Positions 448 through 51,911 of a stretch of 64,000 bases of DNA are shown here, one piece after another. The stretch lies in contig PEZW01000009.1 in NCBI GenBank assembly GCA_002773985.1, forward strand, positions 23,546 through 87,545, given 5' to 3'. Made by a program: the position numbers and the translations under genes. Origin of the DNA: Candidatus Berkelbacteria bacterium CG10_big_fil_rev_8_21_14_0_10_43_13. GTDB taxonomy: Bacteria > Patescibacteriota > UBA1384 > XYA2-FULL-43-10 > 1-14-0-10-43-13. The notes under the pieces were generated by a model, which had not been told where the DNA came from, ran no database searches, and saw nothing but the letters and a program-made list of their open reading frames with translations. Numbering within the stretch: position 1 is the first letter of the stretch; each line of letters begins with the position of its first letter.

Positions 448-2910
448 CTAATTTGTCACAACTGCCTGATAAACTTCATCGATTGTCGTTTCCCCGGCCA
501 CAGCCTTCAAAATCCCATCTTGCTTCATCGTAATCATACCGGCCTTGATGGAAGCATTTTTAATCTCATCTGCCGGTCGCTTGGTCGTCGCCATCTCCTC
601 AATCTCCGGCGTCATCGTCATCGCTTCATAGATACCGACACGACCCTTGAACCCGTGATTGCACTCAGAGCAACCCTTGCCATGAAAAAGCTTGATCTCG
701 GCCGGAATTCTTGCCCGATCTTTCGTATTGGCTTCCGGAATTTTGTCCAGCTCAGCCTTGATCTGGTCGAAAAGCCGCTGTGGTGCCTTGTATTCCTCTT
801 TGCATTTGGGACAAATCCGTCTAATCAGCCTCTGGGCAATGATCAGATTGATCGAGGACGTGATCAGAAATGGCTCGACGCCCATATTTGTCAATCTCGG
901 CAGAGCGCCGGCTGTATCATTGGTATGTAGTGTAGAAAGCACCAAGTGACCTGTCAGAGCTGAGTGAACTGCCATAGTCGCTGTTTCCGCATCACGAATC
1001 TCACCGACCATGATCACGTTTGGATCCTGACGCAAGATACTGCGAAGCCCTGAAGCAAATGTAAATCCTATCTCCGGCTTGATCTGGCACTGATTGATCC
1101 CGGCAATTTCATATTCAACCGGATCCTCGAGTGTGACTATATTGACACCCGGCATACTGATACGGTTTAGGATGGCATATAGAGTTGTGGATTTGCCTGA
1201 ACCGGTCGGCCCAGTCGATAAAATAATTCCATATGGTTTGGCGATTGCGGCGATGGTTTTGTCAAAGGCACTGCCCTGCATACCCAAGTCCTCCAGAGAC
1301 AGGATGCCCTGACTTTTGTCGAGAATTCTCATCACGATTTTTTCACCATGAACAGTCGGCAGTGTCGAAACACGTACATCAACTTCGCGCTCATCAAAAA
1401 CAGTGTCGAAGCGACCATCCTGCGGAACTCGCATTTCATCAATCTTCAGCTTTGACATAATCTTGATCCTGCTGACAAAAGCAGCATGGTCACTTACCGG
1501 CAACTTCAAGATATCACGCAAAATACCGTCGACGCGACACCTGATGCGCAGATATTTTGCCTCAGGTTCTACATGGATGTCACTTGAGCGATTGTTTAGA
1601 GCGTAATCAATGATTGCGGCAACCACCTTTGGCACCGAAGCACCCTTGGCAAAATCAACCAAGTCTTGGTCGGTCTTTATCTCATGATCGAGCCAATCAC
1701 CAAGATTTTTGTTGTCGAGTAAGGCAACTGATTCACCACCCTCTTTGTCACTAGATGCTTCTTCTTTTGCTGACTCTTGGTCCGTATTGCTTTCGCTAGC
1801 ACCATGATCAGAGGTGTCATCTGAGTCTTTTTCTGATGCCTCTTTAGTCTCAGCAGATTGAGGTTTGTTCTGGTCAGAGGGCTGATCTTTTGTAGCATTT
1901 TTCACTGTTTCTGCTGGGTCGGCAGTTTTTGCTGCAGTAGAGTCAGCTTCAACACTATCGATGGTTAGCTCTGGACCAGCTGAACTCCTAAAATTATCCA
2001 TAAAACTTTTGATACCCGACTTCTGTCCCGATTCCTTCGTAGAGCCTGAGTCATCTGAGGATTCATGATTATCTTCAGTTTTAGTGACGGGAGCATCTGT
2101 TTTCTTCGCTTTTGGCGCTTCTGATATGTAAGTTTTTGTCTTGTCGAGAATAAAATCAATGTCTGCTTTTGAAGTCGCAAATATTTCATATTTAATCTGA
2201 TTTTCCTGCTTGATAAAATTCAAAATTTTTATTGTGACCGGTGAATCAGGTTGCTCACAAGCGATAAGGTAATATCCATGATTGTTCCGTCCAAAGACGA
2301 CAATGCGATATTTTATCATAAATTCACGTGGAATTTTCTCAATAAATTCCGAGGCAATTGTCTGGTTTCTCAGGTAGATGACAGGAAAACGTCCTTTTTT
2401 CAGCAAAGAATCGTTCTTGTATTTTTTGTTGTATTGTTTGATGCATTCATCAAAGTCAGACTCGCTGGTGATGAAAAGCTCAACTTCCAGTTCTTTTTCT
2501 TCAAGTATTTTGCTGAGACCAGACCTAAAGCCAACCAGAAGATCGGCAGGTCGTGAAAGTGCTATCCTGATCGCACCATCCTCCAGAGAAAACGGTATTA
2601 TTCCGTATTTTTGTGCTACTTTTTCTGGTATTAGAGCTTTGAGCTCGTCAGAAATTTTAATATTACTAAGCTCTACATAGGGCAACTTCAAAACAATACT
2701 ATAAGCCTTGTTGATCGTATTTCTGGTGACAATTTTGTTCTTAACTAAAAAATTTTCGATCTCTCGGTTTGTTTTAAATTGTCGCTTGAGTTTTTCAGCA
2801 TCTTCTTGGTCGATCAAATCCTGAATCACAAAAACGTCCAGAATTGATTGACTGGTAAGCGCCATATTCGAAAAACCGTAATACTCAGTTATTGTGTTTG
2901 CATCTGCCAT
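448..2910 (-). CDS. pilB: Type IV pilus assembly ATPase PilB/GspE with a long internal acidic low-complexity linker
   Basis: GspE N-terminal domain, Walker A GPTGSGKST, and a CPKC..CSEC tetracysteine motif typical of GspE/PilB. About 230 aa of S/D/E/K-rich low-complexity insert lies between the N-domain and the ATPase. Confidence 0.9.
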   Translation of the reverse strand: MADANTITEYYGFSNMALTSQSILDVFVIQDLIDQEDAEKLKRQFKTNREIENFLVKNKIVTRNTINKAYSIVLKLPYVELSNIKISDELKALIPEKVAQKYGIIPFSLEDGAIRIALSRPADLLVGFRSGLSKILEEKELEVELFITSESDFDECIKQYNKKYKNDSLLKKGRFPVIYLRNQTIASEFIEKIPREFMIKYRIVVFGRNNHGYYLIACEQPDSPVTIKILNFIKQENQIKYEIFATSKADIDFILDKTKTYISEAPKAKKTDAPVTKTEDNHESSDDSGSTKESGQKSGIKSFMDNFRSSAGPELTIDSVEADSTAAKTADPAETVKNATKDQPSDQNKPQSAETKEASEKDSDDTSDHGASESNTDQESAKEEASSDKEGGESVALLDNKNLGDWLDHEIKTDQDLVDFAKGASVPKVVAAIIDYALNNRSSDIHVEPEAKYLRIRCRVDGILRDILKLPVSDHAAFVSRIKIMSKLKIDEMRVPQDGRFDTVFDEREVDVRVSTLPTVHGEKIVMRILDKSQGILSLEDLGMQGSAFDKTIAAIAKPYGIILSTGPTGSGKSTTLYAILNRISMPGVNIVTLEDPVEYEIAGINQCQIKPEIGFTFASGLRSILRQDPNVIMVGEIRDAETATMAVHSALTGHLVLSTLHTNDTAGALPRLTNMGVEPFLITSSINLIIAQRLIRRICPKCKEEYKAPQRLFDQIKAELDKIPEANTKDRARIPAEIKLFHGKGCSECNHGFKGRVGIYEAMTMTPEIEEMATTKRPADEIKNASIKAGMITMKQDGILKAVAGETTIDEVYQAVVTN

Positions 2911-2968
2911 TCTACCTTGAATATTTCCTAATTTGCTAGCAAAAACTAAAAACCTGCCAAGTCAACAA

Positions 2969-3244
2969 CTAATTGCTCGCAAAAGGATTGTCGCGACCGA
3001 CCTGGTCAGATGTTGGAGGCTGGACCGGTAAATCTCCGGCGTTTGTTTTATCAGAAATTAATGACTTGGCTGTCGAAGCCAGATTGGAAACCTCGATAGT
3101 TTGATATTTTTGGTCAGCAGATGTGTCTATTGCTACCTCAGACTGAGCTGAGCTCCAAAACCAAAAGAAACCAGCCACCGTCACAACCAGCAGTAGAGAG
3201 CTACCAATAATTCCAAGCATCCGTGATTTTGTGTTTTTACCCAT
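2969..3244 (-). CDS. Small single-pass membrane protein in the pilus operon (possible PilP-like)
   Basis: ORF with an N-terminal TM helix (LLLVVTVAGFFWFW), co-directional and tightly spaced with pilB and the PilO-like gene. Confidence 0.4.
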   Translation of the reverse strand: MGKNTKSRMLGIIGSSLLLVVTVAGFFWFWSSAQSEVAIDTSADQKYQTIEVSNLASTAKSLISDKTNAGDLPVQPPTSDQVGRDNPFASN

Positions 3245-3271
3245 TTAATTCCTTTCTCGATTTGATGAAAA

Positions 3272-3877
3272 TTATTGTGCCGTTGCAGTGGACATCACAT
3301 CAGCAGACGCACCACCACTGATCGTAGATGTGTCTCCCTGTGTGTATGTTTCCAGTTGAAGAGTCGTGGAGAAGGTGCCGTCATCAGCCGGTGCGATCGT
3401 AGCACTCTTGATAGCAAAGAACTTTAGATTGCTCTCGATCGACTTGACAAAACCGGTCAAACCGGCAAAATCTCCGCTGACAGAGAAAGATACAGAGACG
3501 GCTCCAGTACTGGTACTCTGGGACTGGTCGCTCGTGCCACTGCTATCTGATCCACCGGAAATTTGAAAACTGGGAATGTATGTTTTGTTGGCAGTCGCTA
3601 TCGCTTCCAAAGTCGTGATGATGTCACCGTTGTCCTGATCACTCGGAACCGCCACAAACATCGAATCAACCGTCGAACCAAGACTGTCAAGGGTTGACTT
3701 GGCCGTCTTGAGCGAGTCTAGCTTGGCTTTGACCGCCGTCAGCTCATGATCTACCTGAGCAACATCAGCCTTGTTTTGTTTGTATTGCGGTATGATCCAA
3801 AACCAGCTCAGTAAAAAGGCAACTATCACCAGAAAAACTGCGATAAATCCGGGAGTCGATGATTTCTTCTTTTCCAT
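3272..3877 (-). CDS. PilO-like type IV pilus assembly protein
   Basis: N-terminal TM, coiled-coil segment, S/T-rich C-terminus. Operon position after the PilN-like gene. Confidence 0.5.
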   Translation of the reverse strand: MEKKKSSTPGFIAVFLVIVAFLLSWFWIIPQYKQNKADVAQVDHELTAVKAKLDSLKTAKSTLDSLGSTVDSMFVAVPSDQDNGDIITTLEAIATANKTYIPSFQISGGSDSSGTSDQSQSTSTGAVSVSFSVSGDFAGLTGFVKSIESNLKFFAIKSATIAPADDGTFSTTLQLETYTQGDTSTISGGASADVMSTATAQ

Positions 3878-3878
3878 T

Positions 3879-4571
3879 TTAGATTCCTCCTTCTGTTGCG
3901 CTAACTGAGGCTGTAGAAAGCGCAGTAGTTTTATCCACAGTCGCTGAGATAGAGAAAGTCACCGAGACAACACCTGATTCGACACTCTCGGATTCAGAAT
4001 CGAGTGTCGCTGTGGTAACGACATTTTTTTCATCTATCTTCCAATTTTTCAGTGTCGCAACCTGTTGTGCCGCTGACTTGTAACTGTCAGTCGTGCCGGA
4101 AAAGCTAACTTTTCCTGTGTCATCCACCGATAATGTCGTGACGACAACGTTTTTGTTCACCTGACCATAAAGAAGTGGCAAAAAGTTGTCCATCGAAAAT
4201 CGGCTCTTGGAAGCTGTGCTTAGCTGGTTGACCGCAGACTGAAATTGATTCGCCCTCGTTTCGAGTGCAGCATATGTCGGACTGGAAATCTCGGCGACAG
4301 CATCATCTTTCTGGCTAGTCTTATCTGCAAGATCCTGTGTCGCGCTACTGTTTAGAAACCAAAAAAACACAGTGGCGCTGATCGCTATGATTGCACTGAG
4401 CCAGAGAAGCAATCCGGAGATGCTAAACTCGCCGTGATCCGCCATCTCTGTGAGATAATCGTCACCACTATTTCCGCCACTTGGCCTTGGCGCTGGTGCC
4501 GGAGCTGGAGCAGACGATGGTATAGACGCTGATCCTGCTGCTTGGCTATCTAAAGTTTTTTCGAGATCCAT
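3879..4571 (-). CDS. PilN-like fimbrial assembly membrane protein with Pro/Ala-rich N-terminus
   Basis: TM helix around residues 55-75, then a periplasmic domain. Operon context. Confidence 0.45.
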   Translation of the reverse strand: MDLEKTLDSQAAGSASIPSSAPAPAPAPRPSGGNSGDDYLTEMADHGEFSISGLLLWLSAIIAISATVFFWFLNSSATQDLADKTSQKDDAVAEISSPTYAALETRANQFQSAVNQLSTASKSRFSMDNFLPLLYGQVNKNVVVTTLSVDDTGKVSFSGTTDSYKSAAQQVATLKNWKIDEKNVVTTATLDSESESVESGVVSVTFSISATVDKTTALSTASVSATEGGI

Positions 4572-4641
4572 GATCTCCCTCCTAATTCGTTTGTATATAT
4601 TGTATTAAATAGTGAAATAAAAAGCAAATTTTTTTAAAATA

Positions 4642-4672
4642 GAATCATGAATACTGAATCATGAATTATGGG
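4642..4672. repeat. Left inverted repeat flanking the four-helix-bundle gene (gaatcatgaatactgaatcatgaattatgg)
   Basis: Near-perfect reverse complement of 5039-5068. Confidence 0.7.
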
Positions 4673-5042
4673 TCTTTGATTTTTTAATCAATCCAGAAAT
4701 TAACTTGTGCGCGATGATTGTTTGATTTGCTATCTCTTGAAACAATTTATTATCAATAAGACCAATATCTCTGGCAATTAGAATTTGATTTTGAGCTTCA
4801 GTGACCGAACCCTGGGCAATCGAATAAAATTGAACTTTTTCTTTGTATGACTGACGACTGAACCCCTCGGCAATATTTGAGGTAATCGAAACGATGCATC
4901 TCCTGAGTTGATTTGTTAACCCGAACAATTCTTCTTTTGGAAATTTGTTTGTCGTTTTATATACTGCTAAAACTAACTTATGACCTTCTTTCCAAGCATT
5001 TAAATCGGTAAATGATTTTATTTTTTCTGGATGTTCTTCCAT
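4659..5042 (-). CDS. Four-helix-bundle protein of the 23S rRNA intervening-sequence protein family
   Basis: 127 aa with the characteristic FPKEE..L..QL.RA..SI..NIAEG motif. Flanked by 30-bp inverted repeats. Confidence 0.75.
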   Translation of the reverse strand: MEEHPEKIKSFTDLNAWKEGHKLVLAVYKTTNKFPKEELFGLTNQLRRCIVSITSNIAEGFSRQSYKEKVQFYSIAQGSVTEAQNQILIARDIGLIDNKLFQEIANQTIIAHKLISGLIKKSKTHNS

Positions 5043-5068
5043 AATTCATAATTCTTGATTCATGATTC
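5039..5068. repeat. Right inverted repeat flanking the four-helix-bundle gene
   Basis: ccataattcataattcttgattcatgattc is the reverse complement partner of 4642-4672. Confidence 0.7.
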
Positions 5069-5087
5069 AACTTGATCCAGTGCTGAG

Positions 5088-6254
5088 CTAATTTTTGTTC
5101 CCAACCTCTTCAGAACGCGGCATCGCCAAGTTTCGAAAACCTGGTGGCTGGCTGTTGTCAAAAGCCGGGTCATAAGAAAATAAGACTGATTGGTTCTGAT
5201 TGATCGAAAAATCTGACGCGACAAAAGAACCAGTAAACTCACCATTACCAGTGACTTCAAAATTTGATTCACAGTACATCATGACATTTATTTTATTGTT
5301 TCCTCCAAAATTACAGTTTCCCCCAGTACCGTCAGCTTTTTTCAAAACTATAATACCCAGTTTATCGCCAGACGTAGAATTTGGCAGAATATTTTTATTT
5401 TGGTTAATAGTCAGGTTGCCACCATTGACAACAATAGTGCCAATTCCATTGAAATTTGCCGAATTGTTAATGGTCAAATTACCATTGACAACCCAAACCT
5501 TACCATCAGGAAATTTCGCAAGATCACCTTTGGAGTTATTTTTGAAGAAATTAATAGGAGTATCAGCCTGAAGAGAAAAATTACTTGTAAACAGAAAATC
5601 GTTCGCCGCAATCGGCTGACCACTCCCAGCTAGAGTTTTCAGCTGGGCGATATATTGCTTGTACTGATTGCTTCCATACTTAACCTGAGCAGCAGGATTG
5701 AAGACATAGCTAGATCCAGGCGCCCAGCCAGCTCCATCAGCTGCACCAGCACCTTCAAACAAGTTGGCTGGATTCCAAAATTTTGCCAGATATTCCAAAG
5801 TAGAGCCAGCTTCACCACTATAAACATCGCCATCGACATTTAGCCCGAGAAAAATCAGGGCGGGTATTTCATAAACGACATTACCGTCCACTAGCGTCTG
5901 ACTGGTCATCAGACGGCCAGAACCACCATAATAATTTTGGCCTTCATTACCAGTGCCAAGACTAAAACAGGCTGCCATGCCAGTGGTAAATAATTGCCAA
6001 ATACAACCAATTTGCCCCAGTGCGGCTTCTGTTTTGTTGAATCCAAGATCACCGTTTGTATTGTTATTCAAAACTGCATGATTACCACCAAGTCCACCAT
6101 AAGTAATTTCACCAGAACTTGTGGTTACCTTGGTACTACCTGATATAATTTCCGGGAAATTAGACGAAGCAGCTCTGACTTTTACCACAGAAAAAACTGT
6201 TGCTACTGCAACTAAAAATACGATTAATCTCTGTGTTTTAAATCTATTTTTCAC
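5088..6254 (-). CDS. Secreted protein with Asn/Gly-rich beta-helix-like repeats (possible pilus-associated or adhesin protein)
   Basis: Signal peptide MKNRFKTQRLIVFLVAVATVFSVVKVRA. Repeats such as VVNGNLTINNSANFNGIGTIVVNGGNLTIN. Same operon as the pil genes. Confidence 0.5.
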   Translation of the reverse strand: MKNRFKTQRLIVFLVAVATVFSVVKVRAASSNFPEIISGSTKVTTSSGEITYGGLGGNHAVLNNNTNGDLGFNKTEAALGQIGCIWQLFTTGMAACFSLGTGNEGQNYYGGSGRLMTSQTLVDGNVVYEIPALIFLGLNVDGDVYSGEAGSTLEYLAKFWNPANLFEGAGAADGAGWAPGSSYVFNPAAQVKYGSNQYKQYIAQLKTLAGSGQPIAANDFLFTSNFSLQADTPINFFKNNSKGDLAKFPDGKVWVVNGNLTINNSANFNGIGTIVVNGGNLTINQNKNILPNSTSGDKLGIIVLKKADGTGGNCNFGGNNKINVMMYCESNFEVTGNGEFTGSFVASDFSINQNQSVLFSYDPAFDNSQPPGFRNLAMPRSEEVGNKN

Positions 6255-19840: not shown

Positions 19841-19936
19841 AATGTAGCAAAGCCAATCTGAATTGACAATACACAGACAGATAGTAGAATGAAGATAACA
19901 ATTCTTAATTCTTAATTCTTACCACTGTTGTATAAT

Positions 19937-21161: not shown

Positions 21162-21809
21162 ATGTTAATTTTGGGTCTTTTCGGTAGCAACGCGACATTC
21201 GCTATAATCTTTATTGTCGCACTGCTGATTTGCTTGACAGTTCACGAATATGCTCACGCCTTGGTAGCAACCAAGCTCGGTGACCCGACTGCAAAACTTG
21301 ATGGACGGCTGACGCTCAATCCTATCGCCCACCTCGATCCGATGGGAACAGTCTTTTTGCTTCTGGTTGGCTTTGGCTGGGGCAAACCTGTGCCAATCAA
21401 CCCCAGATACTTTTCCAAAAAAAGCGATGAGATTTTAGTTGCCTTGGCTGGAATCACCACAAATTTAATTTTAGCTCTTGCTTGTGCCATTCCTCTGAGA
21501 AGTTTGCTTGCTAGCAACCAGGCAGCAGGAGCGTCGACATTGATCGTTTTTCTTAGTGTAATGGTTTTACTCGATGTAATTCTAGCCGTATTTAATCTCC
21601 TGCCGATTCCCCCACTTGATGGCTCACATGTCGTCGAATATTTTCTCTCCGATAGTGCAAAATACCAATATCAATTCCTCGGACCATATCTGCTGATCGG
21701 ATTGATTCTCCTTGATTATTTTTCCAGCACCTCGATAATTTTCGCTCTTGCTGAGCCGGTCATCAGATTCATCGCCGGCAGTCAGATAACTCAATTATTT
21801 TTCCGCTAA
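21162..21809 (+). CDS. Site-2 protease family (peptidase M50) membrane metalloprotease
   Basis: HEYAHA zinc motif in a TM helix, multiple TM segments, LDGSH motif. Confidence 0.8.
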   Translation: MLILGLFGSNATFAIIFIVALLICLTVHEYAHALVATKLGDPTAKLDGRLTLNPIAHLDPMGTVFLLLVGFGWGKPVPINPRYFSKKSDEILVALAGITTNLILALACAIPLRSLLASNQAAGASTLIVFLSVMVLLDVILAVFNLLPIPPLDGSHVVEYFLSDSAKYQYQFLGPYLLIGLILLDYFSSTSIIFALAEPVIRFIAGSQITQLFFR

Positions 21810-21938
21810 AACGAGGTAGTTTCTAATTGCTCTAATTAGCTTAATTGCTCTAAAAAAATTCCCAAAAAACCAATTTCTAAGCTTGGGTAGTTGGCGTTTG
21901 GGATTTATTTAGGTCAATTAGAAATTAGAATAATTAGG

Positions 21939-22745
21939 TCAATTTGTGTCGTTGACATTCATATTCACCACGGCATAGCCAACACCAAATGGTCCTTCGT
22001 ACGAGTAGACTTCAGGCTTATAATCCAGACCAGACAAAACCCCAAGCAAAATCAGTATTGAACGGTAGCCACACTCACCAACTTTCTCCAGCATCTCATC
22101 AGACATATTCATAATAGAATACTCATCACCCTTCTTGATCAGAGATAATATTTCGTTGTCAAAAGCTTTTCCTTCAGCAGAAGCACTGCCAATCAGCCTG
22201 TGGCTCAGATCACCAGAAGCGATGACAGCAACTCTTTCATCGTCATGACGTTCGATCACCTCGGAAATGATCTGGCCAAAAGAGCAGTGTTCACTCTGGC
22301 TAGCATAAGAGTAACTCAGTGGCAAAATCTTGGCTGGATAATCGAGCGCAGGCATCAGAAAATGAATTGGCACCAGAACGCCATGGTCAACTTCGTACTG
22401 ACCATCACCGTTGTTGTACAAAATTGTCGGCAGACCCTCGCTCTCAGCTTTATCGACAATTTCTCCGGCCAATTCAAGATTGTTGTGACCACGCCAATTG
22501 ATCTCCGGCGCTTCAAAAGCAGCGAAAGAGCCAAAAAGCTCTGACATCCCGCACACTGTAAATAAGTGCGGATAATGAATCATATGCGGCGAGATGATGA
22601 TAATTGTGTCCGGCTCAGCCGCCGCCAATTCCCCCGCCAATTTTTGATAAGCAGAAATAGTCGTTACTGTTTTTTTGGTGTCTTCCTTGCCGACCTCCGG
22701 TACGATAATCGGCGGATGCGGCACGATCCCGGCAAATACTAGCAT
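21939..22745 (-). CDS. LigB-type extradiol dioxygenase-fold / Memo-like protein (AmmeMemoRadiSam system protein B-like)
   Basis: N-terminal GIVPHPPIIVPEVG and GDLSH motifs resemble the class III extradiol dioxygenase B / Memo1 family. Family assignment is tentative. Confidence 0.45.
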   Translation of the reverse strand: MLVFAGIVPHPPIIVPEVGKEDTKKTVTTISAYQKLAGELAAAEPDTIIIISPHMIHYPHLFTVCGMSELFGSFAAFEAPEINWRGHNNLELAGEIVDKAESEGLPTILYNNGDGQYEVDHGVLVPIHFLMPALDYPAKILPLSYSYASQSEHCSFGQIISEVIERHDDERVAVIASGDLSHRLIGSASAEGKAFDNEILSLIKKGDEYSIMNMSDEMLEKVGECGYRSILILLGVLSGLDYKPEVYSYEGPFGVGYAVVNMNVNDTN

Positions 22746-23042
22746 TTTGACCTCAATACTATTTAGCTATTTCAATTCTTTGTTTTGTCCTCAACTTAAT
22801 TATATCAAACTTTATCTTTTATGTTCAGTAAAAAAACTAAGTATTTGTCTACAAATATTCACGATCGTGGAAAATCATAGACAAATTAATAATATTATTT
22901 ATTACTTTTTGTAATATTGACTGTGAATTTGAAACCGTAACAAGCAGGGGGCTGACCTTGAAATAATTACCATGAATAAAAAATTAGCCCTGGAAGGGGC
23001 TAATTTTTTACAATATACTTTATAACTCTATACTATATACTT

Positions 23043-23306
23043 TTACTCTTTACTCTCCCAGTACTCTTCTGCCTCCTCCTCCATCGCTTCGAGGCGGGTA
23101 TAGTAATCAGGAAATTCGTTCAGATGTGCTAGAGCAATTTTACCAGTTGTCAGCGGATCATCGCCAGAAACGTCCGTCTCCGGATCGACCTTGCCGTGCT
23201 CCAGCTCGACATCCATACCACGGCGAAACTGATCAACGTCAAATTTATCCCACGTAATTCCCAATTTTTCGCCAATTTCCTTGGCAACATCTTCACTAAA
23301 TTTCAT
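23043..23306 (-). CDS. Small acidic hypothetical protein
   Basis: 87-aa ORF with an AT-rich tandem repeat array in its upstream region. Confidence 0.5.
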   Translation of the reverse strand: MKFSEDVAKEIGEKLGITWDKFDVDQFRRGMDVELEHGKVDPETDVSGDDPLTTGKIALAHLNEFPDYYTRLEAMEEEAEEYWESKE

Positions 23307-23330
23307 TGTGTGTTCCTTCCGCTTTATTAA

Positions 23331-23420
23331 GATTATGACTTTACAAACTTGATAAACTTTATGACTTTATAAACTTTACAAACTTTTTAACTTTACAAAC
23401 TTTTTAACTTTATAAACTAT
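23331..23420. repeat. Degenerate tandem array of about 11-17 bp AT-rich units (CTTTACAAACTTTTTAA / CTTTATAAACTT)
   Basis: Five to six units seen directly. Similar units at 14700-14756. Confidence 0.6.
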
Positions 23421-23421
23421 A

Positions 23422-23655
23422 TTATTCTTTGCTCAACCCAAACCGCCAGATGGTTAGAATTAATATCACTACAATCCAGCCAAGGGCGATCCACACATGG
23501 ATTAGATTATCTAAAATTCTACCACCAAGTAGTGAAACCGACCGCATAATCCGAGGTAACGGTGATAACGGCAATATTTGAACGATATTATAGAGCCATT
23601 TCGGCAAGGAATCGATCGGAAAAAACATCATCGGAATAGTGATGGCTGTTGACAT
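23422..23655 (-). pseudogene. ABC-2 type permease C-terminal fragment
   Basis: 77-aa hydrophobic ORF, too short for a permease. Paired with a truncated ABC ATPase immediately upstream. Confidence 0.45.
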
Positions 23656-25557: not shown

Positions 25558-25633
25558 TGGTACCCTCAAGAGGAATCGAACCTCCGACTTCACGGACCGG
25601 AACCGTGCGCTCTATCCACTGAGCTATGAGGGC
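25558..25633 (-). tRNA. tRNA-Arg (anticodon CCG)
   Basis: Acceptor GCCCTCA/TGAGGGT, D-arm GCTCAGTGGATAGAGC, anticodon stem CACGG/CCGTG with loop TTCCGGT, T-arm GGAGGTTCGATTCCTCT, CCA encoded. Confidence 0.8.
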
Positions 25634-25720
25634 AATATAGAATTAGAAATTAGGAATTAGGAACAGTAAAGACACTGTCTTTTCTTCCCGATATTTATAA
25701 CATTTTTCTTGACTAAATAC

Positions 25721-31013: not shown

Positions 31014-31418
31014 ATGACCAAAAAAGAACAACAAATTACACTTGATGATTTGGCGGCTATGGTCGCCAACGGTTTTCAGAAGATGTCTGACCAGTTTTCC
31101 GACCGATTTGATGGTGTCGACAAGCGTCTTGATGGTGTCGACAAGCGTCTTGATGGTGTCGACAAGCGTCTTGATGGTGTCGACAAGCGTCTTGATGGTG
31201 TTGAATTTAATATGAATGGTTTGCGTCAAGAATTCAACGCATTTCGAAGTGAGACACGTGCTAATTTTGAAAGGTTGTGGAATGAGATTGCAAAGATAAA
31301 TCATCGTCTCGATTTGATTGAAAAAAGAACAGACGAAGATACCGGTCTGGCTTTGTCTGAGATTGAAAAACTGAAAAAAAGAATTTTAATTCTTGAACAA
31401 AAGCTAAAAACCGCATAA
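31014..31418 (+). CDS. Small coiled-coil protein with an internal DGVDKRL x4 tandem repeat
   Basis: ATG at 31014, in frame with the longer track ORF that overlaps the upstream gene. Perfect 21-bp repeats. Confidence 0.5.
   Translation: MTKKEQQITLDDLAAMVANGFQKMSDQFSDRFDGVDKRLDGVDKRLDGVDKRLDGVDKRLDGVEFNMNGLRQEFNAFRSETRANFERLWNEIAKINHRLDLIEKRTDEDTGLALSEIEKLKKRILILEQKLKTA
31111..31200 (+). repeat. Perfect 21-bp tandem repeat x4 (gatggtgtcgacaagcgtctt) within the coding sequence
   Basis: Seen directly. A candidate VNTR. Confidence 0.85.
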
Positions 31419-43215: not shown

Positions 43216-43309
43216 CAGGATGACAACTAATTTATAGAAACGCTACACGCTAAATTTGGAATTTATAATTGTTTGAAAATTGCAAAATTGAAAATTGAAA
43301 ATTTTTTGG

Positions 43310-47503: not shown

Positions 47504-48622
47504 TTATCCACCCTGCTGTTTAACTTGATGCTTGGAAATATTGGTCAACACTCCGACTGCAGCAAGCAAAACGATCAGCGAGGTTCCGCCATAGCTAATA
47601 AATGGAAGCGGAATTCCAGTCAACGGCAATAGTCCCAACATCGCTGCCGTATTGATGGCCATCTGAGAAAATATCCAGATTGTCACCCCGATCGCCACTA
47701 ATCTAGCAAAGCCATCCGGAGCAGTCTTGGCGATTTTCAAACCGCGCAAGGCGATAAAAACAAAAACCAGGATAATAGCCGCTGCCCGCAATGTTCCCAA
47801 CTCTTCACAAATTATAGCAAAAATCGAGTCTGTATGCGCTTCCGGCAGATAAAGATATTTCTGTTTACTTTGACCAAAACCGAGACCAAGCAAGCCGCCA
47901 GAACCGATCGCTATCAGAGCATTTTGGATATGATAGCCAGTTGTCAGGGAACCTGTTCCTGGGTTTAAAAATGTGGTCAGTCGCTGCATCCGGTATGGCT
48001 CTAACTTGATCATCAACCAAAGTAAGACTCCGCCAAGGCCCACAGCACCAAAAATCTGATTGAGCGGTGCACCGGATGCGACAAATAAACTACCAGCAAT
48101 AATTACATATACGGACAGTGTGCCAAGATCCTTTTGCATAAACATCAAAAGAACAATAATTCCCAGAATACTGATAAAGGGCCAAAACAGTTTTGCTACA
48201 TCCTTGAGATTGTTGCCTTTTTCACTAAACCAACCGGCTAAATAAAAAATAAATGTCAGCTTTGCTAGTTCTGCTGGCTGAAAATTAAAGCTGCCGACAT
48301 TGATCCAACGACCAGCTGAAGTAATGTGAAGAGGCGAGAGAATAACCGGTAGAAGCAACAGCCCAATTGTAATAAAAAACATCGTCCCGGCGTGTTTTTG
48401 CCAATAGTGATAATCGATAGCCTGAACCACAACCCAGCCGACGAGGCCGATCGCCACCATTAAGAGCTGTTTTTTTAGAAAATATTTATCAGTCACACCG
48501 TCTGTCAATTCTAGAGAATAATATTTCGACACCGAGTAGATCATGATAAGACCAAAAACAATCAAGCCAAAAATCGCCACAGACAACCAATAATCTGAAT
48601 GTTGTCGCCGAAAATTAGTCAT
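47504..48622 (-). CDS. ftsW: SEDS-family peptidoglycan polymerase FtsW/RodA
   Basis: 10-TM SEDS protein between murD and murG. Confidence 0.85.
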   Translation of the reverse strand: MTNFRRQHSDYWLSVAIFGLIVFGLIMIYSVSKYYSLELTDGVTDKYFLKKQLLMVAIGLVGWVVVQAIDYHYWQKHAGTMFFITIGLLLLPVILSPLHITSAGRWINVGSFNFQPAELAKLTFIFYLAGWFSEKGNNLKDVAKLFWPFISILGIIVLLMFMQKDLGTLSVYVIIAGSLFVASGAPLNQIFGAVGLGGVLLWLMIKLEPYRMQRLTTFLNPGTGSLTTGYHIQNALIAIGSGGLLGLGFGQSKQKYLYLPEAHTDSIFAIICEELGTLRAAAIILVFVFIALRGLKIAKTAPDGFARLVAIGVTIWIFSQMAINTAAMLGLLPLTGIPLPFISYGGTSLIVLLAAVGVLTNISKHQVKQQGG

Positions 48623-50075
48623 TGTTTTGCCTTGATTTTAGAACCGCTTCCTTAAATTTCTCGCCGCGATCTTTGTAGTTTTTAAACATATCGAAACTGG
48701 CGCAAGCCGGAGAAAAGATAATCACGTCACCTCGTCGTGCTTCTCGAAGCGCTTGTTGGACTATCTTTTCTAGTGTCTCATGACCAACAATTATTTCGCC
48801 AGAATAACTTGCTATCTCCAGTGATTCTCTAATTTTCGATCCTTCGGCCCCAATCAACACAACAGTCTTCACATTTGTTCCCGCGATTGCCTCGGCCAAC
48901 TTACTAAAATCAGCTCCCTTCGAACTGCCACCAAGTATCAGAATTTTATTCTCGTCAAATGAGTTGATTGCCGCCATTGTCGGATCAGGATTGGTCGCAA
49001 ATGAGTCATTGATAAATTTGATTCCGCCAATCTCTCGGACTAGTTCTAGGCGATGTGGCAGACCGACAAAACGCTTGACTGCCTCACGAGTTATTTCAAT
49101 TGGAATGTTTAATATATCGGCAACAAGCGTCGCCGCAGCAATATTTTCCAAATTGTGTTTGCCGACCAATTTCAAATCACTAATTTCGCAAATCTCTATT
49201 TGACGATTTTGCGGATCGAGAACAACCTTACTCATACCGTTTTCATCGATGACAACACAATCAACAAATTTGTTGTCGCGGGCAAAATATTTAATATTCC
49301 CGCGGATTTTTTTCAAAGTGCCTGGACCAAATGTCGAAGAGTGATTTAAAACAGCATAATCTTCTTTCCCCTGCCACATAAGAATATTATTCTTGGCCGC
49401 TCGGTATTCGGCCTCGTCTTTGTGGTAATCAAGATGATCGACACCAAGATTGGTCATGACAGCGATATGCGGACTTTTGTCTAAATCCGCCAATTGAAAA
49501 TTTGATAGCTCAAGTATGACAACATCACACTTTTGTAGCTGTGGAATCAAGTTGATCGCCGGCTTACCGATATTGCCCGCCAGATAGGTTTTGGGATTTG
49601 GGATTTGGGATTTGGGATTTGATTTGACATTAGAAATTAGAAATTTGGCATTGTTCTCTAATATTGAAAATATTAGAGAACTTGTAGTTCCTTTTCCTTT
49701 GGTTCCGGTGACACCGATAATAGGACAGGGACAAAGATCGAAGAAAAGCTTCATCTGAGACGAAATAGCAACTCCCTGAGATTTGGCTAGCATCAAAGCA
49801 GGATCACGGAAGTAGATTGCTGGTGAGCGAAAAACAATGTCGTATTTTTCTAAATCATCCAGGTATCCGTCACCAAACACTTTGTCGATCCCGTCGTCAA
49901 CTATGATATTGGAAACCAAGTCTTTGAGTTCGCCCTCAGCTTTGTCAACAATCTTTTCAGCCGAATCTCGGTCATGAACAGCTAAACTGCCGACTCGGTT
50001 TTTCAGAAACTCCAAAAGAGCGACACCTTCAATGCCGAGTCCCAAAATAGCAACTCTTTTTCCCTCAAGCTTCAT
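48615..50075 (-). CDS. murD: UDP-N-acetylmuramoylalanine--D-glutamate ligase, with a repeat-derived in-frame insertion after the P-loop
   Basis: GVTGTKGKGTTSS P-loop, then about 25 extra residues (FLISNVKSNPKSQIPNPK) before LAGNIGKP. Confidence 0.9.
   Translation of the reverse strand: MKLEGKRVAILGLGIEGVALLEFLKNRVGSLAVHDRDSAEKIVDKAEGELKDLVSNIIVDDGIDKVFGDGYLDDLEKYDIVFRSPAIYFRDPALMLAKSQGVAISSQMKLFFDLCPCPIIGVTGTKGKGTTSSLIFSILENNAKFLISNVKSNPKSQIPNPKTYLAGNIGKPAINLIPQLQKCDVVILELSNFQLADLDKSPHIAVMTNLGVDHLDYHKDEAEYRAAKNNILMWQGKEDYAVLNHSSTFGPGTLKKIRGNIKYFARDNKFVDCVVIDENGMSKVVLDPQNRQIEICEISDLKLVGKHNLENIAAATLVADILNIPIEITREAVKRFVGLPHRLELVREIGGIKFINDSFATNPDPTMAAINSFDENKILILGGSSKGADFSKLAEAIAGTNVKTVVLIGAEGSKIRESLEIASYSGEIIVGHETLEKIVQQALREARRGDVIIFSPACASFDMFKNYKDRGEKFKEAVLKSRQNND
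49589..49682. repeat. Intragenic repeat block: (TTTGGGA)x4 tandem + ATTAGAAATTAGAAAT + perfect 29-bp palindrome GTTCTCTAATATTGAAAATATTAGAGAAC
   Basis: Seen directly inside the murD coding sequence. Stays in frame. Confidence 0.75.
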
Positions 50076-50667: not shown

Positions 50668-50706
50668 AAAATCCCCACTAGTTTGTGAGGATTTTTTGAT
50701 TTTTGA
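50668..50706. terminator. Bidirectional rho-independent terminator (aaaaaatccccac-tagttt-gtgaggatttttt)
   Basis: Serves the mraY 3' end on the minus strand and the candidate ncRNA on the plus strand. Confidence 0.65.
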
Positions 50707-50752
50707 TGTTAAAAATATGAATCGCAATATTTTCTTTAGAAATTAGAAATTT

Positions 50753-51793: not shown

Positions 51794-51911
51794 TTATATT
51801 TTTCATTGATCATTTTTTATTTCACATTAATTTTTCATTGTTCATTTATCAATTAATAAATCGTTAAATGATAAATTAATGAAAATTTGTAAAATGGAAA
51901 ATGTAAAATTT

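Follow-up and report, generated by a model that had tools for sequence, protein, structure and literature searches.

Intervening sequences (IVSs) that encode the four-helix-bundle protein S23p lie in rRNA genes of Coxiella burnetii, Leptospira and Azospirillum lipoferum. The IVS of C. burnetii is 428–444 nt long, has a 28-bp terminal stem and bears, immediately 5' of the S23p ATG, a tandem run of three or four GACAGAT heptamers (PMC4990558). RNase III cleaves this IVS in vitro, and the ends of the excised RNA map within the stem (PMC4990558). Genes of the same family, 23S_rRNA_IVP, were noted without explanation in cas operons in 2013 by Zhang and Ye, who took the gene for one with a possible Cas-associated function (PMC3936711).

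Short heptamer repeats have also been catalogued in their own right. Rehm et al. 2015 listed 186 GGGAATC arrays in Xanthomonas campestris, mostly of four units, of which about 70 form inverted pairs; such pairs occupy the operon spacers groES-groEL, atpA-atpG, atpD-atpC and gltB-gltD (PMC4692102). Rehm et al. read the G-rich xanthomonad units as G-quadruplex formers, found no function for the arrays, do not mention the S23p family and draw no link to the protein (PMC4692102). In the literature that could be searched, we found no paper that connects the PF05635 family with heptamer arrays.

The locus described here lies in a 64-kb stretch of DNA (64,000 nt, hereafter the window) and is a new instance of this known type of element in an unusual host context. 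Positions 4642–5068, read on the minus strand, hold exactly one complete unit consisting of an arm, an ORF for a four-helix-bundle (4HB) protein and a second arm (Table 1). Each arm consists of four tandem heptamers of the GAATNNN type as delineated by TRF. The ATG of the 4HB gene (5042–5040) is found inside the 5' arm, and the TGA stop codon (4661–4659) is found together with the last four codons inside the 3' arm. The first-pass annotation of this DNA overlooked the heptamer arrays as well as the start and stop codons within the arms. It had rightly placed the gene in a type IV pilus operon: a gene for a DUF7305-like protein precedes it, PilN-like, PilO-like and PilB genes follow on the same strand, and genes for a PilT-like ATPase and PilC are located farther downstream on the longer contig. 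The window contains no rRNA, and the cassette is situated between two protein genes and not in a 16S or 23S rRNA helix. No PF05635-family member other than the 4HB gene was detected in the window, and the defence-system models of PADLOC gave no match. A Shine-Dalgarno sequence is absent for the 4HB ORF, in direct contrast to pilN, 88 nt downstream in the same window, which has AGGAGGGAG at 4575–4583 in its leader.

Table 1. Coordinates of the cassette, its host genes and a related hairpin in the window
Feature	Position	Strand	Remarks
PilB ATPase gene	448-2910	minus	after the 91-aa ORF
PilO-like gene	3272-3877	minus	after the PilN-like gene; followed by a 91-aa ORF
PilN-like gene	3879-4571	minus	host gene downstream of the cassette
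pilN leader	4572-4641	minus	begins right after the 3' arm; homologous in relatives whether or not they have the cassette
3' arm	4642-4671	minus	sense strand CC ATAATTC ATGATTC AGTATTC ATGATTC; TRF period 7, 4.1 copies
4HB gene, PF05635/TIGR02436, 127 aa	4659-5042	minus	ORF call and profile matches; stop codon counted in
5' arm	5039-5068	minus	sense strand GAATCAT GAATCAA GAATTAT GAATTAT GG; TRF period 7, 4.3 copies
Spacer, 19 nt	5069-5087	minus	from the DUF7305 stop codon to the 5' arm
DUF7305-like gene, 388 aa	5088-6254	minus	N-terminal hydrophobic segment; host gene upstream of the cassette
ORF-less hairpin	21817-21944	.	short-period arrays, flanked by two convergent genes; arms similar to those of the L092 cassette

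The family assignment made in the first-pass annotation is right, as both matches are far over the curated cut-offs: PF05635 (23S_rRNA_IVP) scored 120.4 bits (E 4.7e-35) against a cut-off of 33.8, and TIGR02436 ("four helix bundle protein") scored 116.5 bits (E 6e-34) against a cut-off of 24. A Candidatus Berkelbacteria genome bin from Crystal Geyser encodes the identical protein, recorded there as hypothetical. The AlphaFold2 monomer model of the 127-aa protein has four helices and a pLDDT of 89. Foldseek superimposed it on XCC0516 (2GSC) at 0.8 Å rmsd and on BT_0352 (2RLD) at 1.9 Å. XCC0516 from Xanthomonas campestris is also the nearest solved relative in sequence (E 2.8e-19, 36–39% identity), and Avd (4DWL/8UB7) is a more distant structural match. 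Beyond the four-helix bundle the protein has no recognisable catalytic domain, the HUH/Y1 transposase domain included. The solved relatives 2GSC and 2RLD comprise five chains each, and by analogy with them the protein is most likely a nucleic-acid-binding pentamer.

The duplex of the two arms comprises 26 Watson-Crick pairs over 30 positions and a single U-G pair, is interrupted by a 3-nt internal loop and has an energy of −32.7 kcal/mol. The MFE fold of the transcript and its centroid fold each contain a stem that encloses the whole ORF. The inverted repeat scores 20, compared with 7.5 ± 1.2 at 1469 equally spaced placements elsewhere in the window, none of which attains that value. The 30-bp inverted repeats are located where the first-pass annotation had put them, while its wording "near-perfect" was slightly generous.

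A scan with one genome per species yielded 80 loci in many lineages of the Candidate Phyla Radiation (CPR), with proteins 60–74% identical. Together with the window's own copy, these gave 81 full-length copies with both flanks. The inverted repeat, whose absence from other family members had been named at the outset among the findings that would speak against an IVS-like module, spans the ORF ends in 73 of the 81 copies, with arms of 28 nt at the median and a complementarity of 86%. In 58 of these 73 cassettes the 5' arm reaches the start codon, abutting or overlapping it, and in 56 the 3' arm does the same at the stop codon. The median energy of the arm duplex is −26.8 kcal/mol, compared with −14.1 for shuffled arms and −17.9 for arms taken from different loci. 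A period of 7 fits best in 71/73 cassettes (self-identity 0.76 at shift 7 and 0.19–0.35 at other shifts), and the arms hold a median of 4.3 heptamer units. The unit cores vary by copy, with GAATNNN in 52, GTATNNN in 15, and GTAG, GAGT, GAAG and others besides. Most copies have the same unit type in both arms.

The same build is found in genuine IVSs. A copy from Azospirillum lipoferum (plasmid record) lies inside a 23S rRNA gene identified with the Rfam LSU model, and its arms consist of GAGGACG/GATGACA heptamers over 36 nt. With the Coxiella heptamers described above (PMC4990558), this bears out the likeness to the stem of rRNA IVSs that the first-pass annotation had suggested. Inverted period-7 arrays also occur at the ORF ends in Riemerella (Bacteroidota) and, among cyanobacteria, in Stanieria, Geminocystis, Calothrix brevissima, Nostoc punctiforme and Anabaena sp. 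90; of these, Stanieria and Anabaena have their 5' array some 50–100 nt upstream of the ATG. Picosynechococcus has inverted arrays with a period of about 7–8 nt. Nostoc PCC 7120 and Calothrix PCC 7716 have heptamers on one side only, and in Nostoc PCC 7120 an IS element adjoins the other, heptamer-free side. Pseudanabaena deviates with 14 and 10 heptamers in direct orientation, which counts against a stem, and a partial match in Gemmatirosa has no arrays at its ends. Overall, the heptamer-armed architecture is a trait of the family, near-universal in it across phyla.

The cassette in the window resembles the S23p-encoding IVSs in its homologous ORF, its total length of ~430 nt, its heptamer arms of ~28–30 nt abutting the ATG, its sense orientation in the host transcript and its apparent lack of a promoter of its own. 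It differs from them in that the host is the spacer of a protein operon instead of an rRNA helix. In addition, the ORF in the window is under strong purifying selection, whereas the Coxiella ORF has been reported as decaying and untranslated, and RNase III cutting is experimental for the Coxiella IVS while for the present cassette it would follow by analogy.

Among the CPR copies, the 4HB gene is co-directional with both neighbours in 57/65 cases and opposite to both in none of the 65, while among host genes of the same loci 84/141 (60%) are co-directional and 14/141 opposite to both (p = 7e-7). Between the stop codon of the preceding gene and the 4HB ATG the median gap is 22.5 nt, and between the 4HB stop codon and the next possible start it is 26 nt, so that the 28-nt arms fill the spacers. 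Sense bias and spacer-filling fit together form the pattern expected of a promoter-less insertion that relies on host transcription, and the sense orientation of the operon copies parallels that of the copies within rRNA. A copy with 78% identity occurs in an unrelated operon. Several of the copies from outside the CPR are located between cas genes, in the orders cmr2-4HB-cmr3 and cas6-4HB-cas4. The genes noted by Zhang and Ye belong to the same family and likewise sit between co-directional operon genes; instead of the possible Cas-associated function considered there (PMC3936711), the flanking heptamer arrays indicate the same insertion module.

The pilus operon is common to four lineages, namely the window, L091, L092/L093 and L100–L103, which allowed the history of the site to be followed. 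In L091, the nearest relative, PilN, PilO, the 91-aa ORF and PilB are 82–92% identical and the DUF7305 protein 63% identical to those of the window; the 4HB gene is absent, and the spacer contains two 55-nt hairpin repeats in its place. L092/L093, with a PilN 59% identical, have a gene of another PF05635 subfamily (119 aa, 29% identical to that of the window) between arms of their own, which are of the CTAATTA type and 93% complementary, and a stray GAATCATGAATCA just past the upstream stop codon. L100–L103, whose pilus genes are 47–68% identical to those of the window, have the same cassette at the same site with a protein 85% identical. Their arms are identical to those of the window at 27/30 and 28/31 positions, with one compensatory change in the outermost unit.

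In the window and in L092, homology of the pilN leader restarts precisely at the outer edge of the 3' arm, and the cassette is therefore a discrete insertion. Between the window and L100, the synonymous sites of the 4HB gene are saturated like those of the host genes (pS 0.74), while dN is 0.077 for the 4HB gene and 0.26–0.45 for the host genes. The 4HB protein and the arms are under purifying selection. The first-pass annotation had proposed that the cassette moved as a unit into the operon. Its discreteness stands, given the edge-exact homology, the absence from L091 and the different cassette in L092, and a recent move does not: lateral transfer into the pilus operon in recent times was ruled out by the saturation of synonymous sites against the syntenic L100 copy. 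These comparisons indicate an old, selected insertion that has been vertically inherited, and has been lost once and replaced once at the pilus site.

G-U mismatches on the sense strand are about as frequent as A-C mismatches in the CPR stems (53 vs 45), and the lack of a G-U excess counts against an RNA stem as the selected feature. Permuting the heptamer units within one arm left the complementarity unchanged (18.7 vs 18.5), the observed value being the higher one in 31/63 cassettes. Base-for-base covariation, or pairing of units in mirror order, was accordingly dropped, and the matching of the arms at the level of units holds. Because permutation is harmless, selection seems to act on arrays of matching units and not on single base pairs. 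The term base-for-base palindrome therefore suits the arms less well than a description as oppositely oriented arrays of similar heptamers. What is conserved is about four similar heptamers, of one type at both ends and in opposite orientation, and a stable stem still results. Co-specificity of protein and unit was also set aside as a general rule, the core type following protein relatedness in part (9/21 vs 3 by chance). The stem alone does not explain a 7-nt period in every phylum, which points to a molecular ruler. The protein is the only conserved component available as such a ruler; its solved relatives comprise five chains each.

We favour the interpretation, with a probability of roughly 0.55, that the locus is an IVS-type module residing in an operon, transcribed by read-through, with the heptamer stem as a substrate of RNase III and with a functional ORF. 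The module would have no promoter and would be transcribed from the host operon. The arms would then pair in the RNA to form a stem of ~30 bp around the ORF, which RNase III may cut as it does in the IVSs of Coxiella and Leptospira. Cutting would free the cassette RNA and split the upstream message from the pilNO-pilB message. The processing step at this locus is proposed by analogy with the rRNA IVSs; a search of the 64-kb window for an RNase III signature gave no match, a result that is uninformative and not negative. With the ATG buried in the stem and no Shine-Dalgarno sequence, translation probably needs the stem to be opened. This might be achieved either by ribosomes finishing the upstream gene, given the median gap of 22.5 nt, or by the processing itself. 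As pilN has a conserved AT-rich leader and maybe its own promoter, the cassette could also end a transcription unit and not lie inside one.

A second interpretation, which we consider tentative and is compatible with RNase III processing, regards the heptamer arrays as binding sites, in RNA or DNA, of the 4HB pentamer, with the stem being secondary. The 4HB cassettes would be "autonomous" and ORF-less inverted spacer arrays "non-autonomous" members of one family, comparable to REP/REPIN elements and RAYT. This agrees with a 7-nt period and ~four units per arm that recur across phyla despite unrelated unit sequences, with the unit type shared between the arms of most cassettes, and with the irrelevance of unit order. 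The pentameric state of the solved relatives fits as well, as does Avd, which is part of an RNA-protein complex.

The wider population of heptamer elements speaks to the same point. In 606 kb of CPR loci, the arrays away from 4HB genes most commonly have a period of 7 (122 arrays), as against 14 arrays at period 6 and 42 at period 8; 52 and 15 arrays were counted at periods 14 and 21. Adjacent inverted array pairs number 95 in these loci, at least 52 of which enclose a 4HB ORF, at spacings of mostly 347–413 nt, while 27 are ORF-less hairpins with spacers of 4–100 nt. At loci with a scored cassette, 8 of 23 ORF-less hairpins share the unit type of the local cassette where ~2 would be expected. 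The hairpin at 21817–21944 is probably related to the cassettes, as a form of this element class without coding sequence. Several solo arrays were also detected in the window by TRF. The 7-nt period and the ORF-less heptamer hairpins together point to a partnership of protein and repeat.

Xanthomonas offers a parallel. Among the roughly 186 GGGAATC arrays, array #15 lies 6 nt past bccP and overlaps the start codon of XCC0516, according to the table of Rehm et al. (PMC4692102). XCC0516 thus shares with the window cassette a four-unit array over the start codon and a GAAT(C) core, although the table lists no inverted partner for array #15 (PMC4692102) while the window cassette has both arms. There is also a possible likeness to REP/REPIN-RAYT systems, in which a gene lies between inverted short repeats that are also dispersed gene-free in operon spacers. 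However, RAYT has an HUH nuclease and REP sequences are single palindromes, whereas here the HUH domain is lacking and the repeats are tandem heptamer arrays; the 4HB cassettes also differ in being multi-copy in many contexts.

Several observations weigh against binding sites as the main role of the arrays. Clear co-specificity of protein and unit is absent, since the proteins of a GAAT and a GTAT cassette can share about 70% identity; 15 of the 23 ORF-less hairpins differ from the local cassette; and the protein is without a recognisable catalytic domain. It is conceivable, at clearly less than even odds, that PF05635 pentamers are the partners of the unexplained heptamer arrays that occur in excess in many bacteria, and on the same tentative footing the Xanthomonas GGGAATC, the cyanobacterial STRR-type heptamers and the CPR GAATNNN/GTATNNN arrays could be examples. 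If so, cassettes of the 4642–5068 type would be the coding members of a cross-phylum "heptamer-hairpin" class residing in rRNA helices as well as in the spacers of operons. The ORF-less inverted pairs of four units would derive from them, and the protein would recognise the 7-nt period and thereby govern how the elements are processed, how stable they are or how they spread.

It is very improbable that the arms are the terminal inverted repeats of a DNA transposon or MITE whose transposase is encoded elsewhere, with the 4HB gene as a passenger. Inverted termini, discrete edges, presence/absence polymorphism and short ORF-less versions would all suit such an element. However, target-site duplications or a target motif were not found, the flank matches being distributed as in a cross-locus control and not beyond chance. 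The termini vary widely among copies, with differing unit cores, and it is the supposed cargo that is conserved. The strict sense bias is unexpected for DNA transposition, no transposase is nearby, and no relatives were found in viral contigs.

Still less likely is an ordinary native gene of the pilus operon flanked by incidental hairpins or terminators. The gene has been kept at the pilus site across a deep split, and the spacer of the cassette-free relative does contain other hairpin repeats. Yet the closest relative, L091, has an otherwise intact pilus operon without the gene, homologues with the same arms are found in unrelated operons and in 23S rRNA, and the arms are AU-rich, 30 bp long and ORF-enclosing, hence not terminator-like.

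Diversity-generating retroelements (DGRs) are common in CPR bacteria. That the gene encodes the DGR accessory protein Avd and serves to diversify a pilus or surface protein is nevertheless hardly credible: Avd (4DWL, 8UB7) shares the fold, has pentameric relatives and is a nucleic-acid-associated helper, and distant homology is seen (PF22296, E 0.003; PHROG "Avd protein of DGR", E 1.8e-8), but the window protein is below the family threshold (equivalog model NF033474, 19.8 bits vs a cut-off of 80), the Pfam-matching neighbour ORFs include no reverse transcriptase, a repeat search of 4400–5300 gave no template/variable repeat pair, and dozens of unrelated operons that lack a reverse transcriptase carry the same gene.

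The general architecture, and its tie to unexplained heptamer repeats, appear to be undescribed. Outside rRNA, PF05635 members carry the annotation of isolated "four helix bundle proteins". These non-rRNA copies retain the whole IVS architecture. With the rule that an arm holds about four heptamers and overlaps the start or the stop codon, and with sense-oriented copies placed within operons, including those for pilus, cas, ATP synthase and acc genes, this scattered annotation becomes one definable element class that spans CPR bacteria, Bacteroidota, Cyanobacteria and Proteobacteria. It also offers a testable connection with the heptamer repeats whose surplus in bacterial genomes is unexplained, and it cautions against reading such genes as functional members of the operons in which they reside, for example as Cas-associated proteins. 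The 4HB protein is among the most conserved in its CPR neighbourhoods, which argues for a real function at the level of the cell or of the element.

The period-7 repeats of the window extend beyond the arms of the cassette. Further solo period-7 arrays are found in intergenic spacers, and several of these share the GAAT type of the cassette arms. A perfect 21-nt tandem repeat bears no relation to the heptamer arrays.

Repeats and neighbouring genes considered here (window coordinates unless a locus is given)
Feature	Position	Strand	Details
Solo array	19900-19921		(AAGAATT)x3
Solo array	25640-25663		(GAATTAG)x3.4; immediately adjoins tRNA gene 25561-25633
Solo array	43273-43303		(TTGAAAA)x4.3
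Solo array	50693-50751		
Solo array	51798-51909		
21-nt tandem repeat	31108-31220		TTGATGGTGTCGACAAGCGTC x4.5
murD ORF	48615-50075	-	holds repeat cluster 49590-49690
Period-7 array	23009-23056		beside DUF5661 ORF
DUF5661 ORF	23043-23306	-	87 aa; Pfam E 7e-25
Period 8-9 array	23333-23422		beside DUF5661 ORF; ~10 copies
M50-peptidase gene	21162-21809	+	one flank of hairpin
ORF-less hairpin	21817-21944		128 nt; between convergent genes
LigB/Memo gene	21939-22745	-	other flank of hairpin
Divergent 4HB gene	L022 2841-3212		PF05635 E 1.4e-18

Repeats of this kind also occur within and around other genes. The cluster in murD comprises, in order, TTTGGGA x4.6, ATTAGAA x2.4 and the perfect hairpin gttctctaatattgaaaatattagagaac; it lies shortly past the P-loop, and the reading frame remains open. 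Rehm et al. (PMC4692102) list inverted arrays of a comparable kind inside the purL gene of Xanthomonas. Short-period arrays in the same orientation stand on both sides of the DUF5661 ORF (whole stretch 23009-23422), and small genes other than that of the four-helix-bundle protein (4HB) may be bracketed by heptamer-type arrays.

In the locus L022, several heptamer-bracketed units lie inside 8 kb (1912-4387), one of them the divergent 4HB gene; cassettes can cluster. The plasmid locus of Pseudanabaena galeata (L095) does not fit the stem model. There a 4HB gene (around 1507-1866) that has cas6 and cas4 as its neighbours is preceded by 14 copies of CTAAAAG and followed by about ten of CCAAAAG, all in one orientation and hence direct rather than inverted. 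These arrays resemble the cyanobacterial STRR repeats.

Within the 4HB ORF of the window, a sigma-70-like hexamer pair (4749-4777, minus strand; TTGCCA, 17 nt, GATAAT) directed at pilN matches 10 of 12 positions, as a consensus match only. In the relative L092, the pilus site carries a 4HB cassette of the second subfamily, to which the divergent L022 gene also belongs; the arms of the ORF-less hairpin, TTTCTAATTGCTCTAATTA... and ...TTAGGTCAATTAGAAATTAGAA, are closely similar to the arms of that cassette.

The pilus-site spacer itself varies among relatives. In L091, the nearest relative with the same operon, the equivalent spacer (831-940) contains two tandem 55-nt units, 80% identical and with two small hairpins each, another kind of structured insert at the site occupied by the cassette in the window. 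In L092, a stray GAATCATGAATCA (3452-3464) directly follows the stop codon of the DUF7305 gene and lies upstream of the different cassette with CTAATTA arms. It has the look of a leftover from an arm of the GAATCAT type, and as such would suggest that one cassette has replaced another at the pilus site.
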